Positions 5,441-64,000 of a stretch of DNA of 64,000 nt are shown here, one piece after another. The DNA comes from Heptranchias perlo (Eukaryota), in NCBI RefSeq assembly GCF_035084215.1, contig NC_090337.1:54498001-54562000 (forward strand), in the 5' to 3' direction. Positions within the stretch are counted from its first letter, which is position 1. Each line of letters starts with the position of its first letter. The translations under genes were made by a program, and so were the position numbers. Below the pieces are notes generated by a model that did no database searches, was not told the origin of the DNA, and saw nothing but the letters and a program-made list of their open reading frames with translations.

Positions 5441-5696
5441 TCAAATCCCACCATGGCAAGTTGTGAAACTGAACTCAAGTAATTTGTGGGCTATCACCAG
5501 AAAATTATCATGAAAGTTGCCAGATTGTCATACAAACCTAACCAGTTCACTAATGCTCTGCATGTAAAGGAACCTGCCACCCCTACATGTGACTCCAGTC
5601 CCACATTACATGGTTGACTCTTAAATGCCCTCGGGGCAACCAAGACTGGGCAATAAATACTGCCTTGCCAATGTCACCCAAATCCTAAGAATAAAT
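5441..5696 (+). mobile_element. Decayed SINE made of the 5' region and 3' tail of the 59-62 kb LINE, without the ORF
   Basis: TCAAATCCCACCATGGCA...GTTCACTAATG...ATGTGACTCCAGTCCCACA...TGGTTGACTCTTAAATGCCCTC matches the LINE 5' region. It runs directly into GGGGCAA...TGGGCAATAAATACTGCCTTGCCAATGTCACCCAAATCC, which matches the LINE 3' tail. Confidence 0.8.
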
Positions 5697-6189
5697 CAAC
5701 AGAAAATGAGTGTTAGGATGAAAAACTATAACCAAAGTTTATTAGATGACTTTGTATTTGCAGCAGGAGTAAAGGTCAAAACCATGGAACTCCTTTTTCC
5801 TACAATCTAAATGCGTCCAGATCCCAAGCTTGACATCACCTATCATTACAATCTACTCCTGATACTCTGAAGTTGCTTAATTCAAAAGGATCTTAAAAGG
5901 GCTATTGTGCCATTTTAATGCAATTGCTTAATTAGAGTTATTGGATAATTCAAACTTTGAGATCCAAAAATTACAGAATTATCAGGCACAGACTCGAAGT
6001 GCAGATTTATCTCTTCTCTTTACAAACACGGTGGTGTCCTGCATCACGAGCTTTGGATTCCCAGTTATTAAAAATTGATACACACAGTTCAACGTAGGGA
6101 ACAAGGAAATAAGGAAAGAGGTGAAGAAAAGGATGAGGAAAGCAAGGAGGGAATAGGAAGAGAGAATCTCAAAAAACTATTCAGAAGAG

Positions 6190-17539: not shown

Positions 17540-18004
17540 TAGAAACATGGAAACATAGAAAAGAGGAGCAACAGTAGGTCATTCAGCCCAACGGGCCTGC
17601 TCCGCCATTCAAAATGATCATGGCTAATCATCTAACTCAGTACCCTGTCCTGCTTTTCCCCCATATCCCTTGATCCCTTTAGCATTAAGAAATGTATCTA
17701 TCTCCTTCTTGAATACATCTAATGACTTGGCCTCCACTGCCTTCTGTGGTAGAGAATTCCACAGGTTCACCACCCTCTGAGTGAAGAAATTTCTCCTCAT
17801 CTCGGTTCTAAATGGCATACCCCGTATCCTGAGACTGTGACCCCTGGTTCTGGACTCCCCAGCCATCAGGAACATCCTCCCTGCATCTAGTCTGTCTAGT
17901 CCTGTTAGAATTTTATATGTTTCAATTAGATCACCTCTCATTCTTCTAAACTCTAGTGAATATAGGCCTAGTCGACCCAATCTCTCCTCATACGTCAGTC
18001 CTGC
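17540..18004 (-). mobile_element. CR1 LINE 3' fragment
   Basis: GLTYEERLGRLGLYSLEFRRMRGDLIETYKIL...FFTQRVVNLWNSLPQKAVEAKSL plus tail. Confidence 0.92.
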
Positions 18005-18219
18005 CAATATGGCAATATACGCAATATGGCTTCCTTTATCTACTTCAGTCCCCTTCACCTTCCTCAGGGTTTCTCCCTTGAATAATTGCACATAATCATT
18101 ATAACCAATATTTCTATGCAGATTGATTTTGCAGAAGGAATTCACTTCTGCACTATATAATCCAGTGCAAGCAGAAACAAACAAAAGTTCCACAGGCACT
18201 GAAAGCTGCATGAGTCCTG

Positions 18220-18692
18220 AACAGCTCCACAGACAGTCAACAGCTCCATGGATATTCAACAGCTCGTCCTTCAGCTGCCTAGGACCTAAGCTCTAGAATT
18301 CCCTCCCTAAACCTTTCCGGCTCTCTACCTCCCTCTCATCCTTTAAGACACTTCTTAAAACCTACCTATTTGACCAAGCTTTTGGTCACCTGTCCTAATA
18401 TCTCATGTGGCTCAATGTTAAATTTTGTTTGATAACACTTCTGTGAAGCGCCTTGGGACACTTCACTATGTTAAAGGCCTTTCATAAATGTAAGTTGTAT
18501 TTGTTGGATACTCAACAGCTCCATGGATAGGCAGCAACTCCAGGGACATTGAACAGCTGTACAGACATTGAACACTCCACTCACACTGAGCACCTGCCCA
18601 GAAGTTCAACTGCTCCACTGACAGTCAATAGCTCCAGGGACTCAACAGCTCCATTGACACTCAACAGCTCCATTGATATTGAATAGCTCCAT
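18220..18692. repeat. Degenerate ~19-bp tandem repeat interrupted by an L2-type tail
   Basis: Recurring TCAACAGCTCCATGGATA(C/T) units on both sides of the ~18265-18505 insertion. Confidence 0.75.
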
Positions 18693-20440
18693 GTTGCTCT
18701 AGGTCTAGCTATAGACTAACTGGCTTCAAAACCTGGAAATCAAAAGCTAAAATTAATTATTCATTTGTGAAGAATCACACAAATTTTTGGTTCATTCTTT
18801 TTGGTTCATTTCTGTGTTTAGTGAGGCAAGTACACAATGTTAAATGCTGAATTTATGTGGGGGAAATTTTACTTGACGCGTCGGAGAAAGAATTGCTCTG
18901 GCTGCTGTGTGTAGTGATGTTGTAAGTGCATTCAAAAAGAACATCCTTATTAAGTTGCTACGCAGAATGAGCAGAGCAGTTCCTCCTCAGTGTTGCCATT
19001 GTAAGGGTAGAAAAGAATGTTTAATTTTTCTTCTTTTTGTTTTTTTTAGAAGAAAGCAGACACTCTTTTAGTGAATCTCTGACTATGAATTATGATAACA
19101 GACCTTATAAAACAAATGTCCCTGAAATTACACTGCCCGTATATTAGCGCTGAGAGTTTAACAGGTTTGTATGAAATTCTTTTACCTGCAATTTTAAAGA
19201 AGCTGCAAGCTGTTTAATATTCACACGAGTGGAAAATAATTTAAATAAAATCAAAACCTTTCATGTCCTGGGCTTTATGAAAGATTATTAACCTAGGATA
19301 ACAACGTCAACAATCATAGTTACAACAGACCCAGGAGTATGGATCTATCCCAGGGGAGTTATCTTTGATACCCCGGCCAACATTTATCCCTCAACCAATA
19401 CCACTAAAAACAGATTATCTGGTCATTATCACATTGCTATTTGTGGGAGCTTGCTGTACACAAATTGGCTGCCGTGTTTCCTACATTACAACAGTGACTA
19501 CACTTCAAAAATACTTCATTGGCTGTAAAGCGCTTTGGGGTGTCCTGAGGTCATGAAAGGCGCTATATAAATGCAAGTCTTTTTTTTATTGATCGTGTGG
19601 GGTTCAAAAACCCCTTTAATAAAAGATATTTGAAGGAAAGGGTTAACTGTACCCCTTGTAAACAAAGACATTTGAAAACCTGCAAACGCAGTAATGTGGT
19701 AAACTGTGTTCTCGCAAATCCTGCTTTTCCCTCACTGACGCTGATGGCATTGGAGAATAATGAGTTTCGGGATCGAAGACTTTGTACAGCAAATAGATAT
19801 CTAGATTATTAAATAAATAAACTAGATGGATAATATTGAGCTGAAAGCATTGTCAGGCTTTCAAAACACACTGGCGCTTGGAAGCACAAGCTTTTCAACA
19901 CAGCAGGGGGTAATGTAAGAAAAGGCAACAAGGACATACATCAAAGGCTTCAGATCAGGAAAGCAATGATCGGTATGAAAAAAGGCATGGGCCTCTCATT
20001 CCTATCTGGTAATCTGTTCAAAAGAACTGGGAATTGTCAAACATCAAACAGTGTTGCGTCCAGCATACGGTCAAATGATATAAGAAATGGATTTGACGCC
20101 ACAGAAGCAATCAAAATTGGAGATGCAAGGACCATTAGGAATGTCTGGGCATAGAAATGTAAGAGGCTATCTCTACATGAAAGAGCATAAACAGAGATAA
20201 TAAATACCTTTTACAACCCATTTTTTATTGGGCGTGGATAAACCGCTAAATTAAAAATGTCCGTTTTGCACGCGATCGCAAGTCAATCGGAGCCACTTAA
20301 CATGGCTTCCGGGTTTGCTGTCCAAAAGCTGCTCAGCGGGCGGACTGTGCACCCGCATCACAGGCTGTCAGCTGGAGGAGCTCTATTTAAAGGGGCAGTC
20401 CTCCAATGGCCGCTCCTGAAGCAAACACCCACACACCACA

Positions 20441-23000
20441 ATGGAGCATCCCAGGGGCAAGGCTGCTCCAAGATTCAACGATGCCTCACTCCAGGTGCGA
20501 CTCGATGGGTTGAGGAGGAGGAGGGATGTGTTATACCCAGCGGATGGGAGGAAGTGTCCTGCCTCTGCCATCAGGAAGGCCTGGCTCGAGGATGCAGAGG
20601 AGGTCACCAGCAGCAGCAACATCTCCCGCACCTGGGTCCAGTGCAGGAAGCGCTTCAGTGACCTAACAAGGTCAGCCGAAGTGAGTATACTTACTGATTC
20701 TCCTACATTCCGTCTTCCACATCACCGCCCCCACCCCCCAATTCATTCTGCACTGCCAACACTACTCTATCCCATTACTCCTCACACCCACTTAAGGCTC
20801 ATCCTCAACTTACCTGCACTTACTCAGCACATCCTCACCTCCCCATTTGTCACCCCACCACCAGCACTCAAACCAATCCTCACACAATGTCATGGCTCTG
20901 TCTCATGCTCACCCTCTGATGCATCTCTTTCATGGTCAGCCGCACCCAAACCAATGCATTCATTGGTTGGCCAGTCTCCATCACTCACTCACGCATCTGT
21001 TCTTTCTCCCCTTATAGGAGCAGAGAGCTCAGAATGCACAGAAGAGGGCGAGAACCAGAGCGGGGCCGCAACAAATCGTCATCCTCACAGACGCAGAGCA
21101 GGAGGCACTGGAGCTCAGCTGAACCCTCGAGTGCCTGTCCGTCGGGGACGCCGAGACTGGCACCCGACAAACGTCTGGTGACAGAACTTTAAAATTCGGC
21201 ATACAAAATATTGCCTTCCGTTCTTTTACAAGGCCTTCAGCGACCACTGTGACATACGAAAATACGAACGTACGAATTAAGAGCAGGAGTAGGCCATTCG
21301 GCCCCTCAAGCCTGCTCTGCCATTTGATAAGATCATGGCTGATCTGATTGTGACCTCAACCCTACTTTCCCGTCTACCTACTATAACCTTTGACTCCCTT
21401 GTTAATCAGGAATCTATCGAACTCAGCCTTAAAAATATTTAATGACCCTGCCTCCACCGCTCTCTGGGGAAGGGAGTTCCACAGACTCACGACCATCTGA
21501 GAGAAAAAATTTCTCTTCATCGCCGTCTTAAATAGGAGACCCCTTATTTTTAAACTGTGGCACCTAGTTCTAGTCTCTCCCACAAGGGGAAACATCCTCT
21601 CAGCATCTACCCCTCCTAGTCCCCTCAGGATCTTACATGTTTCAAAAGATCACCTCTCACTTGGTTTAACTTGGGAATGTAAAAGTACAGGCTTCCAACT
21701 GGGAATGCCAAGTCCAAAAATATTGCAGTTGCGACCCAAAAAAACAATTATTTTCGACTCCCACCCGCCCCCAACCCACCCGTTCTTGGGGGTTAAACTC
21801 ACCCCCCTTATGTCCTCTTCACAATTTACTTTCCTACCTACCTTTGTGTCATCAGCAAATTTAGCAACCACACATTCGGTCCCTTCATCCAAGTCATTGA
21901 TATAGATTGTAAATAGTTGAGGCCCAAGCACTGATCCCTGTGGCACTCCACTTGTTACATCTCGCCAAACTGAAAATGTGATGGCAGAGGGCGATTCCTC
22001 AGAGGACCTGCTGGTCTCTGAGGGGGCACCGTCACATCTGAGCGAGCCATCCACCAGCGCAGATACTCACACCTCGGTGGGTCCTAGTCCTCAGTTAGTT
22101 GGGTTGGCACCTGGTGAGTTACCACACACGTGAGCACGAGTTGACACTGGTGGCAGGGGCAGCTGCGGAGAGTCCGCATTGGTGGGAGCACTCCTCTCCA
22201 GGCTCTCCTCAGCTGGACGAAGATGCTGAACCCTAGGGGCCATCCTTTAAAAGGAGAATGATCGAGGGGCAGCAGCACATTTGCGAGGTGCTGGAACAGG
22301 TGCCACGCGCACTCTCCACAATAACGCAGAGGATGGAGGAGTCCAACTCCTGCATGAGTGGAATGGTGGCACAGGCACGGGAGGGAATCTCTGAGCTATG
22401 ATCACAGGGATGTGAGGGAATCTCTGAGATAGTGTCATAAGGACCTGAGCAACTTTCTGAGATACTGTAAGCATGGGAATGTCTGTGATGGAGAGAAGGC
22501 TAGCCTCCATTGAGCTTCAAGCATGGCTCACAAATGAGTCCATTCAGGCCCTGACAACAGCCGTTCGGACTCACAGTGAACAACATTCTGCCGCCTTAAA
22601 CAGGCAGACAGATACACTGGCACTGGCCTTACAAGGCTTCACACATGTTCTCCAAACTGTTGTCCAGCAGAGTGGTAGGAGTGATGTGGGCCTGGCTCAG
22701 GAGAAGGATGATGGCGAAAGGGGACATGGAAGTGGGGACGCCACTCAAAGTGCTCCCACGTCTCACCCGTTGCCCCCCTCTCAACCAGTACCCGCAATGC
22801 TGCCTCCTGTCCAGGTGGCCGAGTCTGCCCCGGCACAGGTGCAGGTGGAGCAGTCTTTGGAGGGGCCCTCACGGGCACGAAAACCCAAAGCATTTAATCG
22901 GTCAGGGCATGGACAAGAGCAACCTGCCACTACCTCTGCTGCAGCCACAGGGGAAGCACCACATAGAAGTAGTCAGAAGAGAAAAGCGAAGGTTTTGTAG
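20441..23000 (+). pseudogene. Harbinger Myb/SANT-like DNA-binding protein gene (spliced, disrupted)
   Basis: Exon 20441-20680 encodes MEHPRGKAAPRFNDASLQVRLDGLRRRRDVLYP...KAWLEDAEEV...RTWVQCRKRFSDL, with donor GTGAGT at 20681. The next exon starts at 21018 (EQRAQNAQKRART...) and has an in-frame stop. A CR1 sits at 21262-21977; the C-terminal part is ORF 22473..23000. Confidence 0.82.
21262..21977 (-). mobile_element. CR1 LINE 3' fragment containing a MITE end at ~21662-21807
   Basis: [41 protein letters not shown] and MFPLVGETRTRCHSLKIRG...WNSLPQRAVEA, plus a typical CR1 tail. CR1 sequence is deleted next to the MITE. Confidence 0.9.
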
Positions 23001-23310
23001 GCACGAAGGGTATACACAAAGATGTTTGACGGTTGGTCATTTTTAAAATTTATATTAGCTTTATGTTAAACTCATTAAATATTATCACCACTGCTGGCAC
23101 GTCTTGGCCATTCTTGACTGGCTTCTGTAATAGGGCCCTTTCATGAGGTTTACCATGAACGGCAACACTTGATGCCACCCATTAGGTCACCCTACCTGGG
23201 TGTATGTGTAGTTGCAGGCCTGTTTTGTGCAGGAAGGTGTTGTGGGCGGGGTGGGGGGGGTTTACTGGTGTAGGCGCTGCTCTATCCAGGTGATGTGAGA
23301 ACTGGACTCT

Positions 23311-23875
23311 TCACACTATCTGATGGTAGGGGAACTGTTCACATATCAGTGTCTCTGTGGCCTCACGAGCAGCCAGGTGAGCCGCTGCTCTGCTCATGGG
23401 TTGCTCCTGCTCCTCCTCCTCCTGCTCTGCCTCCTCCTCCTCAATGTGGGTGGCAGATGTGGATGGGACCTCCTCAAGCGGCACCCCTCTCTGTTGTGCC
23501 ATGTTGTACAGAGCACCACACACTAATGCATCCCTCTCTGTCTGGTGCGAATCGAAGCGCTCCCCCAGAATGATAAATTGCATCTTGAGCAGCCTTATAA
23601 CATGCTCAATTGTAGACCTGGTGGCAATGTGGCTGTCGTTATATCGACGCTGTTGCTTGGTGATGGGGTTCCTCAGAAGTGTCATGAGCCACGTGTGCAG
23701 GGGCTATCCCTTGTCCCCGAGGAGCCAGCCCTTAAGGGTGTTTGGTGCATGGAAGAAGGGAGGGATGTTGGATTCTCAGAGGATGAAGGAATCGTGGCAG
23801 CTGCCAAGGAATCTGGCGCACACGTGAAGGAATCTTTTGTGGTGGTCACAAACGAGCTGAGTGTTGATGGAGTGT
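23311..23875 (-). pseudogene. Harbinger (HARBI1-like) DDE transposase, C-terminal part
   Basis: HSINTQLVCDHHKRFLHVCARFLGSCHDSFIL*...WLLGDKG*PLHTWLMTLLRNP...RYNDSHIATRSTIEHVI...VCGALYNMA; contains in-frame stops. Confidence 0.88.
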
Positions 23876-23923
23876 TGATGATACAAAGATAGGTGGAAAA
23901 GCAAGTTGCGATGAGGACACAAA

Positions 23924-25944
23924 GGGCCCGATATTACCAGGGCGGCGGGGGGGCGGGGGGGGGGGGGCGATTGGTGAAATCAGTCTGCACTGCGTGCAAT
24001 CGCAGGCTGATTGGATCCACTTACCTCTTATTCCGGGTTCCCCGCTGCTGATCTGCGTGTCGGGCGGACTGCGCATGCGCAGTAAGGTCTGTCAGCTGGA
24101 GGAGCTCAATTTAAAGGGGCAGTCCTCCACTGACTGATGCTGCAAGAAATAGGAAAAATTACAGCATGGAGCAGCCCAGGGGAAGACTGCTCCCAGGTTT
24201 AATGATGCCTCACTCCAGCTCTTATTGGATGGGGTGAGGAGGAGGGGGAGAACAGAGATCTTCCCCCCGGCGGGCGGGAGGAAGTGGCCTGTCTCCGCCA
24301 CCAAGAAGGCCTGGCTCGAGGAGGCAGAGGAGGTCACCTGCACCACCAACATATCGCCCACCTGCATACAGTGCAGGAGGCGCTGCAATGACCTAAGTAG
24401 GTCAGCCAAAGTGAGTACACTTACTCATTCCCCTACACTCCGTCTGCCACATCACCGCCCCCACCCCACATCTCCTTCTGCACTGCCAACACTACTCTGT
24501 CACATCACCCCTCACACCCACTCAAAGCTCATCCTCATCTTACCTGCACTTACTCACCTCGCCAGTACTCATCCCGCCACTACCACTCAACCCAATCCTC
24601 ATACAATCTCATGGCTCTATCTCATACTCACCCTCTCGTGCATCTCTTTCACAGTCAGCCTCACTCAACCTGCCACTACCTGTGCTGCAGCCACAGGGCA
24701 TGCATCACATATGTGCAGCAGACAGCGTAAGGCAAACGTGTCGTGAGCATGAAGGGGATGCACAAGGGTGTTTGAGGGTTTGTCATGGTTTTTACTTATA
24801 TTTCATTTCTGATCAACTCACATTACATATTATATTGGCACCACTACTGCCATGTCTTTGCAAATCTTGTCTGGTTTGTGCAATAATGCCCTTTCCTGAG
24901 GATCATAATGAAGACCCACACCTGATGCCACCCATTGTGTCACTGCAGAGTGGTGTAGGTGTATTTGCAGGGCTCTTTTGTGCAGACGACTGAGAGACGT
25001 CAGCGATGTCCCCGGTGGCACCCTGGAAGGATGTGGAGGAGAAGTTGTTGAGGGCAATGGTGACTTTGACAGCGACAGGTAAGAAGATGGTGCTCGGGCC
25101 AACCGGGAGCAGCTCGGCATGAAGGAGGCTGCAGATGTCCACGACTACATGTCGAGTGACTCTGAGCCTCCGTGTGCACTGCTGCTCAGAGAGGTCCAGG
25201 AAGCTGAGCCTCGGTCTGTGGACCCTGTGGCGAGGGTAGTGCCCTCTGCGACGCATCTCTCTCTGCGGTTGCCCTCCCTCCTGCTGTGCAGGTGGATGTG
25301 TCACAACACTGTGTTGTGGAGCTCCACGTGTCAGCGGTGGACGGTGTGGCTGGCGAGGCTGTTCGCCCTCCGAGGAGGTCATGACTGCGGCTACGGCGAC
25401 CCCCATCTGGAAGATGTACATCTGAGGGGTCCGCAAGGTAGGTACATGTGTCTGGACACTGGGGTAAGTGTGCAAGTTGGTGAATTTAATTGTTAGGAGG
25501 AGGGTGGTGGAGGCCAAGCTTTGTCCAAAGTGACAGAGTGGCCTCCTGCAATGAGTGAAGGTCTCCCCGCCCCACCTGTCAAATGGACCTTTGCAGCTGC
25601 CACAGGCTGATGGCTGCAACACGACCATTTGAACTGGGAGTGTTTCCCCCAGTACCGGAAACAGTCCCAGTTGTTTGTAAAATACCAACCCTCCTAAAAT
25701 ATCTCATTAATCAGGTCTGTAAACGTCCTGAAATACCAAAATAAATACCTTAAGTGGCACCACGCCGGCTTGAATTGCCGGCGGGAGTCCCACATGCGGG
25801 GGCTGCGCACGCATTTCAGCGCGTCTGTGGGAAACCCGGAAGTGGGCGGGTCGGAGCCGGGCTCCTGACCCGCCCCGGGAATCCCCGATTTTCGTGGCCC
25901 CCCCATCAGGAACGCACCCGATCGCGGGTGCTAAAATCGACCCC
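23924..25944 (+). mobile_element. Non-autonomous Harbinger (internal-deletion derivative), copy 1
   Basis: Imperfect TIRs GGGCCCGATATTACCA / TGCTAAAATCGACCCC; 3-bp TSD AAA at 23921-23923 and 25945-25947. Retains Myb exon 1 and the 5' part of the transposase. Confidence 0.92.
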
Positions 25945-26591
25945 AAAGTGTCTGCAAAGAGATATTGAGAGGTTAAGTGAATGGGCAAAAATTTGGCAGA
26001 TGGAATATAATGTGGGAAAATGTGAAGTCATCCACTTTGCGAGGAAAAATAAAAAAGCAAAATATTATTTGAATGGAGAAATACTACAAAATGCTGTGGT
26101 ACAGAGGGATCTGGGTGTCCTCATACATGAAACACATAAAGTTAACACACAGGTGCAGCAGGTAATCCGGAAGGCAAACAGAATATTGGCCTTTATTTCT
26201 AGGGGGATGGAGTATAAAAGCAGGGAAGTCATGCTACAACTGTACAGGGTGCTGGTGAGACCACACTTGGAGTACAGCGTACAGTTCTGGTGCCCTTATT
26301 TAAGGAAGGACATACTTGCATTGGAGGCAGTTCAGAGAAGGTTCACTAGGTTGATTCCGGTATGGAAGGGTTGTCTTATGAGGAAAGATTGAACAGGTTG
26401 GGTCCATACTCATTGGAGTTTAGAAGAATGAGAGGATGTTATTCCCTCATGGGGGAATCTAAAACTAGGGGGCATAGTCTCAGAATAAGGGGTCGCCCGT
26501 TTAAGACGGAAATGAGGAGGAATTTCTTCTCCCAGAGGGTCGTGAATTTTTGGAATTCTTTACCCCAAACAGCTGTAGAGGCTGAGTCATT

Positions 26592-28642
26592 GGGCATCAT
26601 TTTAGCACCCGCTATCGAGTGCGTTCCTGGCGGGGGGGCTCCGAAAATCGGAGAATCCCGGAGTGGGTTGGGAGCCCGACTCCAACCCGCCCACTTCCGG
26701 ATTCCCCACTGACACGCCGGCGTGCGCGTGCAGCCCCCGCTGGTGGGAATCCCACGGGCAATTAAAGCCAGCGGGATGCCACTTGAAGCTATTTATTTTG
26801 CTTGTTCAGGTCATTAACTGACCTGATTAAGGGATTATGTGAGGAGGGGTGGGATTTTATAGCAAACTGGGACTGTTTCCCATACTGGGGGAAACACTCC
26901 CAGTTGAAATGGACGTGTTGCAGCTGTCAGCCTGTGGCAGTTGCAAAAGTCCATTTGACAGGTGGGTGGGGGGAGACCCTCACTCATTGCAGGAGGCCAC
27001 TCTGTCACTTGGGACAAAGTTTGGCCTCCACCACCCTCCTCCTGACAATCAAAGTCACCAACTTGCACACTTACCCCGGGATCCAGAGACATGTACCTAC
27101 CTTGCGGACTCCCTCAGATGTACATCTTCCAGATGGGGGCCGCCATAGCTGCAGTCATGACCTCCTCGGAGGGCGGAGGGCGAACAGCATCACCAGCCTC
27201 GCCATCCACGCCGTCCACCTCTGACACGTGGAGCTCCATAACACAGTGCTGTGACACATCCACCTGTACAGCAGGAGGGCTACCGCAGAGAGAGATGCAT
27301 CGCACAGGGCACTGCCCTCACCACAGGGTCCACAGACCGAGGCTTAGCTTCTTGGACCTCTCTGAGCAGCAGTGCACACGGAGGCTCAGAGTCACTCGAC
27401 ATGCAGTCGTGGACATCTGCAGCCTCCATCATGCCAAGCTGCTCCTGGCTGGCCCAAGAACCATCTTCTTACCTGTCGCTGTCAAAGTCACCACTGCCCT
27501 CAACAACTTCTCCTCCGTATCCTTCCAGGGTGCAACCGGGGACATCGCCGATGTCTCTCAGCCGTCTGCACATAAGAGCCCTGCAAATACACCTACACCC
27601 ACTCTGCAGTGACACAATGGGTGGCATCAGTTGTGGGTCTTCATAGTGATCCTCAGGAAAGGGCATTATTGCACAAACCAGACAAGATTCGCAAAGACAT
27701 GGCAGTAGTGGTGCCAATATAATATGTAATGTGAGTTGGTCAGAAATTAAATATAAGTAACAACCATGACAAACCCTCAAACACCTTTGTGCATCCCCTT
27801 CATGCTCACGACACGTTTGCCTTATGCTGCCTAATGCACATATGTGATGCATGACCTGTGGCTGCAGCACAGGTAGTGGCAGGTTGAGTGAGGCTGACTG
27901 TGAAAGAGATGCACGAGAGGGTGAGTATGAGATAGAGCCATGAGATTGTATGAGGATTGGGTTGAGTGGTAGTGGCGGGATGAGTACTGGCGAGGTGAGT
28001 AAGTGCAGGTAAGATGAGGATGAGCTTTGAGTGGGTGTGATGGGTGATGTGACAGAGTCGTGTTGGCGGTGCCGAAGGAGATGTGGGGTGGGGGTGGTGA
28101 TGTGGCAGATGGAGTGTAGGGGAATGAGTAAGTGTGCTCACTTTGGCTGACCTACTGAGGTCATAGGAGCGCCTCCTGCACTGTATGCAGGTGGGCGATA
28201 TGTTGGTGGTGCAGGTGACCTCCTCTGCCACCTCAAGCCAGGCCTTCTTGGTGGCAGAGGCAGGCCGCTTCCTCCCGCCCGCCGGGGGGAAGATCTCTGT
28301 CCTCCCCCTCCCCCCATGTATTGATACCTGGAGTGAGGCATCATTAAAATGGGAGCAGCCTTCCCCCTGGGCTGCTCAATGCTGTAATTTTTGCTATTTG
28401 TTGCAGCATCTGTCAGTGGAGGACTGCCCCTTTAAATAGAGCTCCTTCAGCTGACAGATCTTACTGCGCATGCGCAGCCCGCCCAACGCGCAGGTCAGCA
28501 GTGGGGAACCCGGAAGACCAGGTAAGTGGATCCAATTGGGCTGCGATCGCGCGGGTGGCTGACTAATTTCACCGGGCGCTTTACCCATGTGCCCGATAGC
28601 CCCCCCCCGCCGCGAACCCGCAGCCCTGGTAACATCGAGCAC
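26592..28642 (-). mobile_element. Non-autonomous Harbinger, copy 2 (inverted relative to copy 1)
   Basis: Termini GGGCATCATTTTAGCA / TGGTAACATCGAGCAC; 3-bp TSD ATT at 26589-26591 and 28643-28645. Its ORF-track peptides mirror those of copy 1 on the opposite strand. Confidence 0.92.
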
Positions 28643-28752
28643 ATTGAATACATTCAAGGCTGAGTTAGACAAATTTTCGATCAGCAAGGGAGTCAACGAA
28701 AATGGGGAAAAGGCGGGAAAGTGGAGTTGAGGTAAAAATCAGATCAGCCATG

Positions 28753-29318
28753 GAGTGGAATCCCACTGCCCTCTCCGTGTGGCTGAGGTTGTCAATGGGG
28801 AAGTTGACGTACTGTGAGGCCCTGTGAAACAAGCCGTCAGCGACCTGCCTTATCCACTTGTGTGCAGACCACTGAGACACCCCGGTGATGTTCCCGGTGG
28901 CACCCTGGAATGATCTGGAGACGAAGAAGTTGAGGGCAGTGCTGACTTTGACAGCGACAGGTAAGGAGATGCTGCTCGGCCCAGCCAGGAGCAGCTCGGC
29001 ATGAAGGAGGCTGCAGATGTCGGTGACTCGGTATGCATGCTCCTCAGAGAGGTCCAGGAAGCTGAGCCTCGGTCTGTAGACCCTGTTGCAAGGGTAGTGC
29101 CTCCTTCCACGTCGCTCTGTCTGCTGTTGCACTCCGTGCTCTTGTGCAGGTGCCTGTGGCACAGCACTGTGTTGTGGAGCTCCACGTGACGGAGGTGGAC
29201 GCCGTGCCTGGCGAGGCTGTTGATATTGCTCATCCTCGGATGTAGTGGTGAATGCAGCCACGGCGCCCCCCCCACCCCGCCCCCCAGCCTGACGGTGTGA
29301 GTTTGAGGGGGTCCGCAA
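28753..29318 (-). pseudogene. Harbinger (HARBI1-like) transposase, N-terminal part
   Basis: ORF 28665..29318: RVYRPRLSFLDLSEE...LPVAVKVSTALNFFVSRSFQGATGNITGVSQWSAHKWIRQVADGLF...YVNFP...GFHS, followed by the CR1 junction. Confidence 0.88.
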
Positions 29319-30902
29319 AGTAGTTAAATATATTTGAACAGCAGAATTTTGAGTGGAAAGTACGAATTTTCAGTGCAAGCACAAAGATCTTGCATCCAAA
29401 ACTTTGTCTGAAAGAACAGAGTGCCCTGCTGCAATAAGTGACCTTTTCTCCCCATCTGTCAATTAAGCATTTGAATCTCCCCCCAGCTGCTGGCTGAAAC
29501 ACATCTGTGGTAACATGGAGCATTTCCCACAGCACGGGAAACACGCTGAGGATGCTTCAAAATCACACCCCTGACAAAATGTGGAGAAAATGAAGTACTT
29601 CAAGCACTTAAACTACCTCAACAACTATGTAAATGATCATCCTGTCGGCTTTAATTGCCGGTGGGACTTCCACATTCAGGAGGCGTGCCCGCACCCAGAC
29701 GGGTCAATGGGGAACCTGGAAGTCTGCAGGTTGGTGCCGGGCTTCGAACGCGAACGGGATTTCCCCGATTTTCGGAGCCCCCGCCCCCATCGCACCCACA
29801 ATTTCCCGGGAAAATCGAGCGCATGGTCTTTTCTACATCAAAGGGTCTTCAGTCACATGATCAAAGCCTAAACTGTCAATCATTGAAGTACGTTAATGAT
29901 TGAGGCATAGCAACAGGGAGCGATTGGACAAAAAGAATGACCCGCCCCAATGCTACATCCTGTTGGTAAAAAAACAATTAAAAAAGACTTTGAGAGAAGA
30001 CCAGTTTCTTCTCTTCACCACCTGACAGTCACAAGGAATGCACACTGCAGTTGCACATCACGCAAGAAGAAAAGGACATCGAGTACTGAAGAGCTAATCG
30101 ACCTTCAGGCCCGACAAGCAAAATCCTTGATTTAAAGGTTGTATACATATTAATGATTTGCCTGATGTGTGTATGAATTGTTAAGTCATTACACAATAAT
30201 GGTGTGAATCATTAAGTGTACAACGGGATTTTATGGAGGAAAGTCATATGTATGGTTTGATTTTGCTTCATGAATGCTCGTATGAATGTTAACATCATTG
30301 AATAATTACTTTTGATTGACGAAACTACCGTGAGTGAGGGTGACTTTCTTTGCTTGACTATTCATCCAGTGTCCAAGAATCACACAAAATAAGGAATTCC
30401 CTACAATTGAGTTTAATGAATAATGCTGACTCATCTCAAAGGTTGCCAAAAGGTAACTGTGGCTCTTTCATGGTGCTCATTGTAGAATGTGACTATATGA
30501 CTTTGTTAATGAGTAAAATCTTCAACAAAATGCAATAAAACTACTAGGGTAAACATCTGCACGTTGAACGAGTCATGTTATAATGATGTTGGGACACGAC
30601 AAAGATATTGGACAGGAGACTGTTGATGCATGGTCTGGCCACACAGGTGGCCCTGGTATTCTAAACAAAGGTATCATTTGTTTGCAATTGCATCCACCTA
30701 AACTTAAAAAGCAATAATCACTTACTAATATAAAAGAGTCATTTCAATGTCTTGGCTCAGCGTTATAATGGAACGTCCATTCTCCAACTGTTTTTAAAGT
30801 CATAACTCTAAGTTACCTTCTTGAATACACTCAAATATTCTTTATTAATTTGAGTAAATTTTCTACCCATTGAGTATGAATGAGTGGCTACAGGCCCCTT
30901 GG

Positions 30903-58875: not shown

Positions 58876-59302
58876 AATGTAGAATTACCAATACTGTGTA
58901 GAAAAATTAACATAGAAAAATTCAATATCATGAGTTGCCATGTGAAAGACCCAGCTAAAGTACGGTCCTCAGTCATCAAGGTTGTGTTGCAGGCTTTAAG
59001 TGAGCCACTTTAGTGGTACACACACAGTTATGTGCCCTGACACCAACTTTCGTGCCAATATCTCGATTTTTTTATCCATCCATGGCATGGAGCAAGGGTG
59101 AAAAAGCTTTGTGATTGCCATCATGATCAAATGTCTACATGTACTAAGAGCAAAAAATATAGGGAGTCCACGTAATGCTGAATAATATTTTAGTGTCGAG
59201 TGTCGGTGTGCAAGTGCACGCCTAGGATTTAAAAAAATTTTTTTTATTATTCGTTCACGGGATGTGGGCGTCGCTGGCAATGCCGGCATTTATTGCCCAT
59301 CC

Positions 59303-62209
59303 CTAATTGCCCTCGAGAAGGTGGTGGTGAGCCGCCTTCTTGAACCGCTGCAGTCCGTGTGGTGACGGTTCTCCCACAGTGCTGTTAGGAAGGGAGTTCC
59401 AGGATTTTGACCCAGCGACAATGAAGGAACGGCGATATATTTCCAAGTCGAGATGGTGTGTGACTTGGAGGGGAACGTGCAGGTGGTGTCGTTCCCATGC
59501 GCCTGCTGCCCTTGTCCTTCTAGGTGGTAGAGGTCGCGGGTTTGGGAGGTGCTGTTGAAGAAGCCTTGGCGAGTTGCTGCAGTGCATCCTGTGGATGGTG
59601 CACACTGCAGCCACAGTGCGCCGGTGGTGAAGGGAGTGAATGTTTAGGGTGGTGGATGGGGTGCCAATCAAGCGGGCTGCTTTATCTTGGATGGTGTCAA
59701 GCTTCTTGAGTGTTGTTGGAGCTGCACTCATCCAGGCAAGTGGAGAGTATTCCATCACACTCCTGACTTGTGCCTTGTAGATGGTGGAAAGGCTTTGGGG
59801 AGTCAGGAGGTGAGTCACTCACCGCAGAATACCCAGCCTCTGACCTGCTCTTGTAGCCACAGTATTTATATGGCTGGTCCAGTTAAGTTTCTGGTCAATG
59901 GTGACCCCCAGGATGTTGATGGTGGGGGATTCGGCGATGGTAATGCCGTTGAATGTCAAGGGGAGGTGGTTAGACTCTCTCTTGTTGGAGATGGTCATTG
60001 CCTGGCACTTATCTGGCGCGAATGTTACTTGCCACTTATCAGCCCAAGCCTGGATGTTGTCCAGGTCTTGCTGCATGCAGGCTCGGACTGCTTCATTATT
60101 TGAGGGGTTGCGAATGGAACTGAACACTGTGCAGTCATCAGCGAACATCCCCATTTCTGACCTTATGATGGAGGGAAGGTCATTGATGAAGCAGCTGAAG
60201 ATGGTTGGGCCAAGGACACTGCCCTGAGGAACTCCTGCAGCAATGCCCTGGGGCTGAGATGATTGGCCTCCAACAACCACTACCATCTTCCTTTGTGCTA
60301 GGTATGACTCCAGCCACTGGAGAGTTTTCCCCCTGATTCCCATTGACTTCAATTTTACTAGGGCTCCTTGGTGCCACACTCGGTCAAATGCTGCCTTGAT
60401 GTCAAGGGCAGTCACTCTCACCTCACCTCTGGAATTCAGCTCTTTTGTCCATGTTTGGACCAAGGCTGTAATGAGGTCTGGAGCCGAGTGGTCCTGGCGG
60501 AACCCAAACTGAGCATCGGTGAGCAGGTTATTGGTGAGTCAGTGCCGCTTGATAGCACTGTCGACGACACCTTCCATCACTTTGCTGATGATTGAGAGTA
60601 GACTGATGGGGCGGTAATTGGCCGGATTGGATTTGTCCTGCTTTTTGTGGACAGGACATACCTGGGCAATTTTCCACATTGTCGGGTGGATGCCAATGTT
60701 GTAGCTGTACTGGAACAGCTTGGCTAGAGGCGCAGCTAGTTCTGGAGCACAAGTCTTCAGCACTACAGCTGGGATGTTGTCAGGGCCCATAGCCTTTGCT
60801 GTATCCAGTGCACTCAGCCGTTTCTTGATATCACGTGGAGTGAATCGAATTGGCCGAAGACTGGCTTCCGTGATGGTGGGGATATCGGGAGGAGGCTGAG
60901 ATGGATTATCCACTCGGCACTTCTGGCTGAAGATGGTTGCAAACGCTTCAGCCTTGTCTTTTGCACTCACGTGCTGGACTCCGCCATCATTGAGGATGGG
61001 GATGTTTGCAGAGCCTCCTCCTCCCGTTAGTTGTTTAATTGTCCACCACCATTCACGACTGGATGTGGCAGGACTGCAGAGCTTTGATCTGATCCGTTGG
61101 TTGTGGAATCGCTTAGCTCTGTCTATAGCATGTTGCTTCCGCTGTTTAGCATGCATGTAGTCCTGAGTTGTAGCTTCACCAGGTTGGCACCTCATTTTTA
61201 GGTACGCCTGGTGCTGCTCCTGGCATGCTCTTCTACACTCCTCATTGAACCAGGGTTGATCCCCTGGCTTGTTGGTAATGGTAGAGTGAGGAATATGCCG
61301 GGCCATGAGGTTACAGATTGTGCTGCAATACAATTCTGCTGCTGCTGATGGCCCACAGCGCCTCATGGATGCCCAGTTTTGAGCTGCTAGATCTGTTCTG
61401 AATCTATCCCATTTAGCACGGTGGTAGTGCCACACAACACGTTGGATGGTGTCCTCAGTGCGAAGACGGGATTTCATCTCCACGAGGACTGTGCGGTGGT
61501 CACTCCTACCAATACTGTCATGGACAGATGCATTTGCGACAGGTAGATTGGTGAGGACGAGGTCAAGTAAGTTTTTCCCTCGTGTTGGTTCGCTCACCAC
61601 CTGCCGCAGGCCCAGTCTAGCAGCTATGTCCTTCAGGACTCGGCCAGCTCGGTCAGTGGTGGTGCTACCGAGCCACTCTTGGTGATGGACATTGAAGTCC
61701 CCCACCCAGAGTACATTTTGTGCCCTTGCTACCCTCAGTGCTTCCTCCAAGTGGTGTTCAACATGGAGGAGGACTGATTCATCAGCTGAGGGAGGACGGT
61801 AGGTGGTAATCAGCAGGAGGTTTCCTTGCCCATGTTTGATCTGATGCCATGAGATTTCATGGGGTCCAGAGTCAATGTTGAGGACTCCCAGGGCCACTCC
61901 CTCCTGACTGTATATCACTGTACCGCCACCTCTGGTGGGTCTGTCCTGCCGGTGGGACAGGACATACCCAGGGATGGTGATGGAAGAGCCTGGGACGTTG
62001 GCTGAAAGATATGATTCTGTGAGTATGGCTATGTCAGGCTGTTGCTTGACTAGTCTGTGGGACAGCTCTCCCAATTTTGGCACAAGTCCCCAGATGTTGG
62101 TAAGGAGGACCTTGCAGGGTCGACTGGGCTTGGTGTTTTGCCGTTGTCGTGTCCGATGCCGGGTGGTCCGTCCGGTTTTGTTCTTATTATGACTTTTCGT
62201 AGCGAGATT
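59303..62209 (-). pseudogene. APE-RT ORF (~968 codons) of the above element; two in-frame TGA stops, no frameshift
   Basis: ORF-track pieces 60539..62083, 59819..60463 and 59303..59818 are all in the same frame. They are separated by TGA at 60539-60541 (KRH*LTNN) and TGA at 59819-59821 (ILR*VTH, likely CGA>TGA). Confidence 0.9.
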
Positions 62210-62495
62210 TTACAACTGAGTGGCTTGCTCGGCCATTTCAGAGGGCAATTAAGAATCAACCACATTGCTGTGGGTCTGGAGTCACATATGGGCCAGACCG
62301 GGTAAGGGCGGCAGGCTTCCTACCCTAAAGGACATGAGTGAACCAGATGGGTTTTTACGACAATCCGGTAGTTTCATGGCCATCATTACTGATACTAGTA
62401 TTTTAATTCCAGATTTTTATTTAATGAATTGAATTTTAATTAATTAATTGAATTTTAATTAATTAATTGAATTTAAATTCGCCAGCTGCCGTGGC

Positions 62496-62579
62496 GGGAT
62501 TTGAACTCATGACTCTGGATTTTAGTCTAGGCCTCTGGATTACTAGTCCAGTAACATAACCACTATGCTACCATTCCCA
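62496..62579 (-). promoter_or_regulatory. tRNA-derived internal Pol III (type 2) promoter at the 5' end of the LINE
   Basis: A box TAGCATAGTGG; anticodon-arm-like CTGGA-CTAGTAA-TCCAG followed by a partial duplicate CTAGACTAAAATCCAG; B box GAGTTCAAATCCC. Confidence 0.8.
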
Positions 62580-64000
62580 GTACCAATGGTTGACGCTTAT
62601 AGAGCAGGCTACTGGGTATGTACAGAAGCTAATGCTGCTATATCTGCATTTAGTGATTACATTATCTGAGACAATTGAACATCTTCCTATAATTTTCAAG
62701 ACTGAGATTTTTGTTACATTAGGATATCAAGGGATATGGAGCAAAGGCGGGAAAATGGAGTTGAGGTACAGATCAACCATGATCTGACTGAATGGCGAAA
62801 CAGGTTCATGAGGCTGAATGGCCTACTCCTGGTTCCTAAACAATTTCTCACTTCCAAGCCAAAAAATCACAGATACAAAAATGCTCTGAGTGCGTGGGGT
62901 TAATCTCTGAATGCTGCTGAGAACACTAAGAATTGCCTCAATTTCATTAAGAAATATGACACAGTCGTGACATTTTATAAAAAATATAAAGCTGGTAATG
63001 CCAACAGAGACAGGTTACTGGCATATGGTGCACAGTTTGATTTACGCTAGTGAAAGGTTATAAGTGTCAAACTAATTCTACAAGGGTTGCTATTGGCGTC
63101 ATTCCCCATCTCCTTGCAAGCACCCCTCTCCCCCCACCCCACCACCCAAATACTTAGTAAATTTAAAGATTGGTGATTGACAGATTATTGGTGCTCACGT
63201 CATTCCCCCCTTCCACCCTGAAGACAACAACTGCTGATGGGGGACACAGTTCCACATCCATTGGCAGTCACCCAATAAATTGGTCAAGTGGTCATTCTTC
63301 AATCCTGAGCCTGGACAATGAGCACTGGGAGCCTGTTTGACAGTTGGGGGGGGTATCACAATCAAACTTGATCCTGTTCCCACCTGACATCCAAACACAC
63401 ACACTTTCCAGTGGAGGTTGCCAAGTTGTTATCAGAAGCAGGAACCCTGGCTGGTTTCCCACCTCTCCAGACTTGGGAGCACGATGCGAAATGTAGCACC
63501 CTGTTATGGTCAGTTAACTCAGACCAGGGATAAAACCTGCAATCCTCCTAAACTCCATGGCTTTGCATGACACCAGTTGGCACACCTACCCTCTTGAGCC
63601 ATAAAGCAACGACAATGGCAGGTTCGAAGAACAGTCATGTGTTTTGTTACTCAGGATTATCTCTTCCAGCAGCAATGGCTGAGGTGGAATGTACTGGTTT
63701 TCATCCAAAGCCACCTAACCAGAAAATATCACTGACGCATTAAATTAAACTATTTTTAAAAAGTGCTCGAAGGCCTGAGCCAACGCTGCTCTGTAACTGC
63801 CCACAGGAAATATTGAAGTGCAGCCTGAGCATCCCCTAATACTTCAGCTGCATACATCGAGTCGTACAGACCAAAAGGCATCAGGTTGCATTGCTGAGTT
63901 GGTGCACCCCAGTTGGATACAGCAGGGGGTGGGTCAGTTGACTTGGGCATTGCTGGGGAAGGAGAAAACAAATATCAGCCAGGGTCCCTGCTCCTTTCAG

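Follow-up and report, generated by a model that had tools for sequence, protein, structure and literature searches.

The window analysed here, a 64,000-nt stretch of the genome of the shark Heptranchias perlo, contains on its minus strand a full-length copy of a Zenon-type LINE (59238..62578), in which an 11-nt segment of the leader is exactly complementary to the ORF's end, and the deletion junctions of the short derivatives of this LINE are concentrated at or just inside these two segments. Probably, the RNA of the element folds end to end through the helix formed by the two arms, and the reverse transcriptase (RT) jumps across the fold, hence the pile-up of junctions. A sequence-only reading of the window had proposed that the ORF was looped out at the two motifs; this idea finds good support, the looping-out being recurrent and control joins being rare.

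The Zenon element and the complementarity of its ends

The element comprises a tRNA-like head, a leader, a single APE-RT ORF, a short 3' UTR and a poly(A) tail. Among 20 fetched copies, 19 align to the window copy over more than 3.2 kb at 95-98%, and most share the start of the head; the remaining copy is devoid of the 3' end. No fewer than 5,942 copies extend from the leader into the ORF, and the depth drops only about tenfold across 3.3 kb of the element. The ORF (59303..62209, minus strand) contains the Pfam domains Exo_endo_phos and RVT_1 and has no ATG ahead of the endonuclease domain, the earliest in-frame ATG being located ~207 codons into the endonuclease region; in the window copy it is disrupted by two premature stops (60541-60539 and 59821-59819). 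The element thus exhibits the features of Zenon (CR1 group), namely a single APE-RT ORF without ORF1, according to the definition in the available text of PMC13343379, and a poly(A) tail, and its head and leader resemble by eye the elasmobranch Zenon consensi published there, over their first 400 nt. Identity with SacSINE1/Deu-SINE was rejected, as visual comparison with the Deu alignment of the PMC7245038 supplement, in its available part, showed no likeness.

The tRNA-like head (62496..62578, minus strand) has an A box (62570-62560) and a B box (62508-62497), both read from the sequence. Its match to the Rfam tRNA family (62577-62496) reaches 17.5 bits, which is under the gathering score (E 0.72), and ARAGORN found no tRNA gene in the head. 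No Rfam ribozyme matched the region 62100-62620 at E up to 10, a search that divergent ribozymes could escape, and an HDV-like or other known ribozyme leader was rejected for want of Rfam support. The B box is followed by an AT-rich palindromic repeat spacer (62500-62410, minus strand), in which the number of units differs between copies. With both an A and a B box in its 5' head, and a sense strand free of runs of four or more T, the element has the sequence features of a Pol III unit. TTTT is absent from the sense strand in 20 of the 21 copies, and its density is 0.02 per kb, as against 2.9 per kb across 42 CR1-type fragments from this genome, a scarcity that reaches only P=0.10 under a shuffle of synonymous codons alone. 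Together with the absence of an early ATG, it fits putative Pol III transcription and putative non-AUG initiation. Runs of five or more T occur in the spacer of some old short copies, where they either speak against strict Pol III read-through of such copies or stem from later decay. Canonical CR1-type LINE fragments are present in the window at 17624-18292, 21650-22066 and 25754-26712, and two of them served as the T-run control. Several GC-rich repeats that are related to each other lie at 20200-29400 of the window; their frames are Myb/SANT-like and transposase-like, and we take them to be probably decayed PIF/Harbinger-type DNA transposons. The window also has a minus-strand open frame (46254-47027) that presumably resembles the terminal exon of a gene for heparan-sulfate 6-O-sulfotransferase.

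The conserved leader block (62212..62345, minus strand) holds both complements of the ORF end; it is near-invariant by eye in the available Zenon consensus leaders of five species, and column tallies of copies from the same genome also support it. An Arg-rich frame lies upstream of the endonuclease (62209-62100, minus strand). The spacing between the leader anchor and the endonuclease anchor keeps one frame in 73 of the 99 listed copies (main classes 220, 217, 205 and 202), which hints at translation of the Arg-rich frame; a repeat unit of 15 nt could also account for this pattern. Published consensi of other species, as far as available, possess an ATG in the Arg-rich region that appears by eye to be out of frame with the ORF; at this site the young family has ATA or ACA.

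Reverse complementation verified the exact match, reported in the sequence-only reading, between TAATTGCCCTC (62251-62241) in the leader and GAGGGCAATTA (59314-59304) at the end of the ORF, both on the minus strand; the 3' arm reaches into the TAG stop codon (59305-59303) and takes in its first two bases. Two G-U pairs lengthen the 11-mer helix to 16 bp (62256-62241 with 59299-59314). The 5' arm, termed here site B (62241..62256, core 62251-62241), is supported by complementarity and by minimum free energy (MFE) folds, while the 3' arm (59299..59314) is made of the last codons of the ORF and the stop, and adjoins a predicted 3' UTR stem-loop (59258..59303, minus strand). From what is known of the CR1 group, we take this stem-loop to be the likely RT recognition element. 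Structure prediction relied on MFE folds of the full element and cofolds of its end segments. The 16-bp helix is present in the whole-element MFE fold of the window copy, with a duplex energy of -22.8 kcal/mol, and a long-range 16-mer duplex stronger than this helix also exists within the element. The ORF end (59321-59304) has a second, imperfect complement in the leader, site A (62319..62337, minus strand), a predicted alternative partner that bears private changes in the window copy; its duplex is at about -19 kcal/mol vs -23.7 to -25.5 kcal/mol for site B in young copies. Among full-length MFE folds, those of young copies use site B in 5 of 8 cases and site A in 3, and those of older copies use site A, wholly or partly, in 4 of 6 and site B in none.

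Deletion junctions of the derivatives

An old, decayed short derivative lies in the same window on the plus strand (5442..5697); its segment 5509-5632 matches 62378-62241 at 68%, and its leader is joined to the tail at 5632|5633 (TGCCCTC|GGGGCAA), i.e. arm to arm, as had been read from the sequence. Searches of the genome with a leader and a tail anchor separated by a gap of 5-120 yielded at least 1,390 exact matches, and B box and tail anchors within 500 nt of each other yielded 2,228, counts that are inflated by amplified short families. Since the derivatives consist only of the 5' and 3' ends of the LINE and occur in multiple dispersed copies, they belong to the short internally deleted elements, or bipartite SINEs. 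The 3' UTR stem-loop is kept in all of them because it was the search anchor. Gaps between anchors were searched up to 500 nt, and deletions that keep more than 500 nt between the anchors were met by chance only.

Junctions were sampled from 70 copies among the first 100 listed of the 2,228 (the leading 30 and, after these, 40 from the remaining 70), omitting some copies already fetched and obvious members of a 250-nt family; 64 of the 70 could be mapped, and six with more than 30 unaligned letters were dropped. The 5' breakpoints of the 64 lie upstream of the 5' arm in three cases, at the arm in 10, within 50 nt past it in 43 and 51-100 nt past it in eight, with none beyond, and many of them accumulate at 62215-62198, where the conserved leader block ends. 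Of the 3' breakpoints, 15 are inside the arm, 39 within 50 nt, seven at 51-100 nt and three beyond. The arm zone holds 31 of the 35 distinct junction clusters vs 9.9% expected (p 2e-27), and a tight zone holds 21 of 32 junctions vs 11% expected, with the reservation that seeming singletons may be small families, as the sample covers ~3% of the genome. Such junctions are found in young and old subfamilies, and similar joints occur in three runs of other species. Over the whole element, five of the 15 best-supported joints connect the arm zones (another 6,680 joints lie beyond those 15). In many cases the sequence kept at the junction is longer than in any abundant family, and it bears young diagnostic letters. 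Among young junctions 8 of 14 share at least two letters, vs 17% for random pairs, and this excess of microhomology is what template switching would give. Richness in microhomology was ruled out as the cause of the hotspot, which is no richer in it than the control area.

Control joins are few. The ORF start joined to the tail, with a gap up to 500, gave 73 matches. The leader joined to the inner ORF gave 17, which scale to ~70-80 because the inner anchor is rare, being exact in only 4 of 21 copies; the leader joined to 59790 gave none. The strongest predicted internal duplex, whose 3' arm is at 59800-59810, gave two matches, which rules out the idea that any strong predicted duplex yields deletions. 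The fold through site A gave two as well, with no junction cluster, so that site A with the helix 62316-62304:59501-59513 is unsupported as the jump-generating fold; two of the three junctions that break upstream of the 5' arm lie near this fold. In one run (X1), joints that start at 59802-59803 reach scattered inner positions, and as their matched sides have only 22-24 letters they may be artefacts.

Of 73 longer deletions, 56 were fetched and 17 probable segmental duplicates left out; 52 were mapped, giving 49 distinct junctions. One longer derivative, in which 12 letters are inserted between the joined ends, has about a dozen copies on a single contig (G000:C23), likely spread by segmental duplication. 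Most of the longer deletions are singletons, and as a set they follow a nested diagonal (rho 0.57, n=38, 0 of 5,000 null draws), their 5' and 3' breakpoints shifting inward together. Junction ends fall closer to each other on the predicted structures than null pairs do (median 35 vs 96 steps); permutation of partners had a modest effect in the longer class (7/579) and none in the B-box set (268/579). A predicted nested helix, H3, pairs a 5' arm at 62061..62074 with a 3' arm at 59542..59556 (both minus strand; partner given by the cofolds and MFE folds as 59556-59542); it is found in all eight full-length MFE folds of young copies and has a pair probability of 0.8-0.97 in four cofolds. Twelve of the 49 distinct junctions adjoin H3, and 17 occupy another box, immediately inward of a duplex predicted locally (~62045-62024:59598-59613), each box covering 3% of the area and both having been drawn post hoc. 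Substitutions in the young lineage that improve pairing are partly circular evidence, because the helices were predicted on young copies.

The mechanism that we favor would operate as follows. Reverse transcription would begin at the poly(A) tail, and the RT would encounter the helix within ~60 nt, where it would either stall or displace the 5' arm and then switch template to the neighboring leader strand. The product of such a jump would be a ready-made SINE, because both the tRNA-type promoter and the tail are kept. Jumps at nested helices (H3 and H4, both predicted) would explain the rarer longer derivatives. The putative purpose of this clasp would be to place the leader beside the tail and stop codon of the RNA, which would probably be made by Pol III, uncapped and AUG-less, and the birth of SINEs would be a by-product. 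What the LINE would gain may be translation of such an uncapped RNA, its hand-over to the RT, or 5' completion. The helix is unneeded for mobilization in trans, because an abundant short family without most of the 3' arm was still amplified.

Conservation of the helix and rival explanations

The perfect form of the helix is confined to part of the young copies: among the 19 with both ends, the 11-mer is perfect in nine and 10 bp are kept in 17. The outer base at 59314 is G in 12 copies and A in eight, vs a mean decay of 3%, and is a subfamily state rather than a product of CpG decay. In older subfamilies and in other species the helix carries a central mismatch; the 5' arm reads TAATTG here and TAAATG, TAACTG or CAACTG in the available consensi of the five published species. 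The base opposite an invariant A of the 3' arm (locus position 410) is T here and C or A in four runs of other species, where its partner mostly stays A, with G at only ~1-22% of the depth, and in 10 short copies whose arm reads TAATCG or TAATCA, the 3' arm has not changed to compensate. Covariation, which the sequence-only reading had suggested as a check, was thus not found across subfamilies and species, and the perfect complementarity is not conserved, an outcome that the same reading had named as refuting its proposal. The conserved form is a helix of 9-10 bp with a mismatch. The 6-bp core TGCCCT/AGGGCA has no listed majority variant in the four other runs, but the leader block in its entirety is conserved as well, and so is the ORF end. 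The oldest short copies keep the same hotspot despite a weak site-B duplex (-13 kcal/mol in the old copy L313). The earlier proposal of a long-range helix therefore stands in part: the ends are likely juxtaposed, as junctions pile up at the arms, but the perfect match is not a conserved property.

A general leader-tail duplex was not seen in 19 distant CR1-group-like elements, each compared with 40 shuffles: three had one shuffle as good as the real sequence and none had zero, and the two most Zenon-like gave z of -1.4 and -1.7. One of them (L139:421-3460) is a full invertebrate-type Zenon-like element with a poly(A) tail and a 3' hairpin loop that resembles the shark tail; it has an ATG and many T-runs, and its leader-tail duplex of 12-13 bp is insignificant (z -1.4). 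Many bacterial and archaeal MAG contigs in GTDB (L209-L288) contain animal LINE RTs, which is likely host contamination.

A stronger version of the clasp mechanism, in which the deletion junctions of the genome, thousands in number, preserve a fossil proximity map of the RNA and the helix directly causes recurrent, one-step birth of SINEs, is put forward here only tentatively. The absence of covariation and the persistence of the hotspot in old subfamilies and other species with a weaker match would also be expected if a protein (ORF2p or a host factor) bound the leader block and the 3' hairpin and held the ends together, with the complementarity as a secondary helper, and so would the peak of 5' breakpoints at the end of the conserved block. 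Such a bridge is rather unlikely in our judgment: the junctions fall in site B and not in site A, and the longer deletions track predicted nested helices, which is unexpected from a two-point bridge.

We find it less probable still that deletions occur anywhere, by DNA repair or random jumps, and that the pattern is made by selection alone, the amplified SINEs being only those short products in which the entire leader block and the tail are retained, with later small deletions within the SINEs diversifying the junctions. A few families do dominate (14 of the 64 mapped copies fall in one junction cluster), deletions or interruptions in the middle of the element are frequent in a set of 20 variant copies, and the leader block is conserved across species. 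From the control background, however, no more than a handful of distinct origins would be expected in the arm zone, and a small sample showed 31; the junctions that exceed any abundant family in retained sequence, with their young diagnostic letters, do not agree with this explanation, nor does the clustering of the unamplified longer class, and the fall in depth along the element is too gentle for length alone. That the perfect 11-mer is chance drift in two conserved blocks, with no pairing of the RNA in vivo, is very improbable: 11-bp inverted repeats are ordinary at this length (one anywhere in the ~3.4-kb element in 70% of 200 dinucleotide shuffles) and the perfect form is lineage-specific, but a repeat linking the first 450 nt to the last 150 nt arose in only 1 of the 200, none of 40 leader shuffles was as good as the real end-to-end placement, the leader contains two complements of the same arm, and the junctions coincide with the arms.

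Relation to known elements and implications

The closest known relatives are the elasmobranch Zenon elements (CarCar, HypSab, RhiTyp, ScyCan and SquAca), which according to the available text of PMC13343379 have the same tRNA-like head and leader block, a length of ~3.3 kb, an APE-RT ORF, no ORF1 and a poly(A) tail. In the main text of that paper, as available, the terms polymerase, promoter, secondary structure, internal deletion and non-autonomous each have zero occurrences. The available part of PMC6740152 describes Persaeus, a set of short elements that are internally deleted forms of lepidopteran Zenon, in which the Zenon 5' and 3' ends are joined, with several independent origins and template jumping proposed. 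Persaeus differs in having about four origins, no Pol III head and a 5-bp direct repeat as the explanation, whereas the shark element has dozens of junctions in one genome, clustered at an inverted repeat in a zone that is not rich in microhomology. The derivatives of R2 (SIDEs; PMC3414825) and the bipartite derivatives of RTE, Ingi and Vingi (PMC5786205) form, as far as those texts were available, the wider class to which the shark derivatives belong. Kojima's model, as given in the available text of PMC5786205, requires a second event to add the small-RNA head, and the same source notes that internal deletion occurs in only a few clades, for unknown reasons; the shark LINE itself carries the head, and the cause proposed for its deletions is structural.

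A literature search with incomplete coverage (most subscription journals and Repbase Reports were outside it) returned no leader-tail helix in a LINE, no Pol III LINE and no description of this leader. Short long-range helices that join the ends of an RNA are exemplified by the 5'-3' cyclization sequences of flaviviruses, and deletion hotspots in defective-interfering RNAs arise where the polymerase jumps between juxtaposed regions; both cases rest on covariation and mutagenesis. The comparison with the shark helix, for which covariation was sought and not found, is an analogy only and implies no homology.

An end-to-end RNA helix at a deletion hotspot offers a concrete and testable cause for internal deletion. 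As this LINE already carries a SINE-type head, each jump would yield a complete SINE, and a head-to-tail fold that lets the RT skip the gene would explain the continued production of new short repeats. Our results also suggest that the deletion junctions of a high-copy LINE may serve as a natural map of contacts within its RNA.
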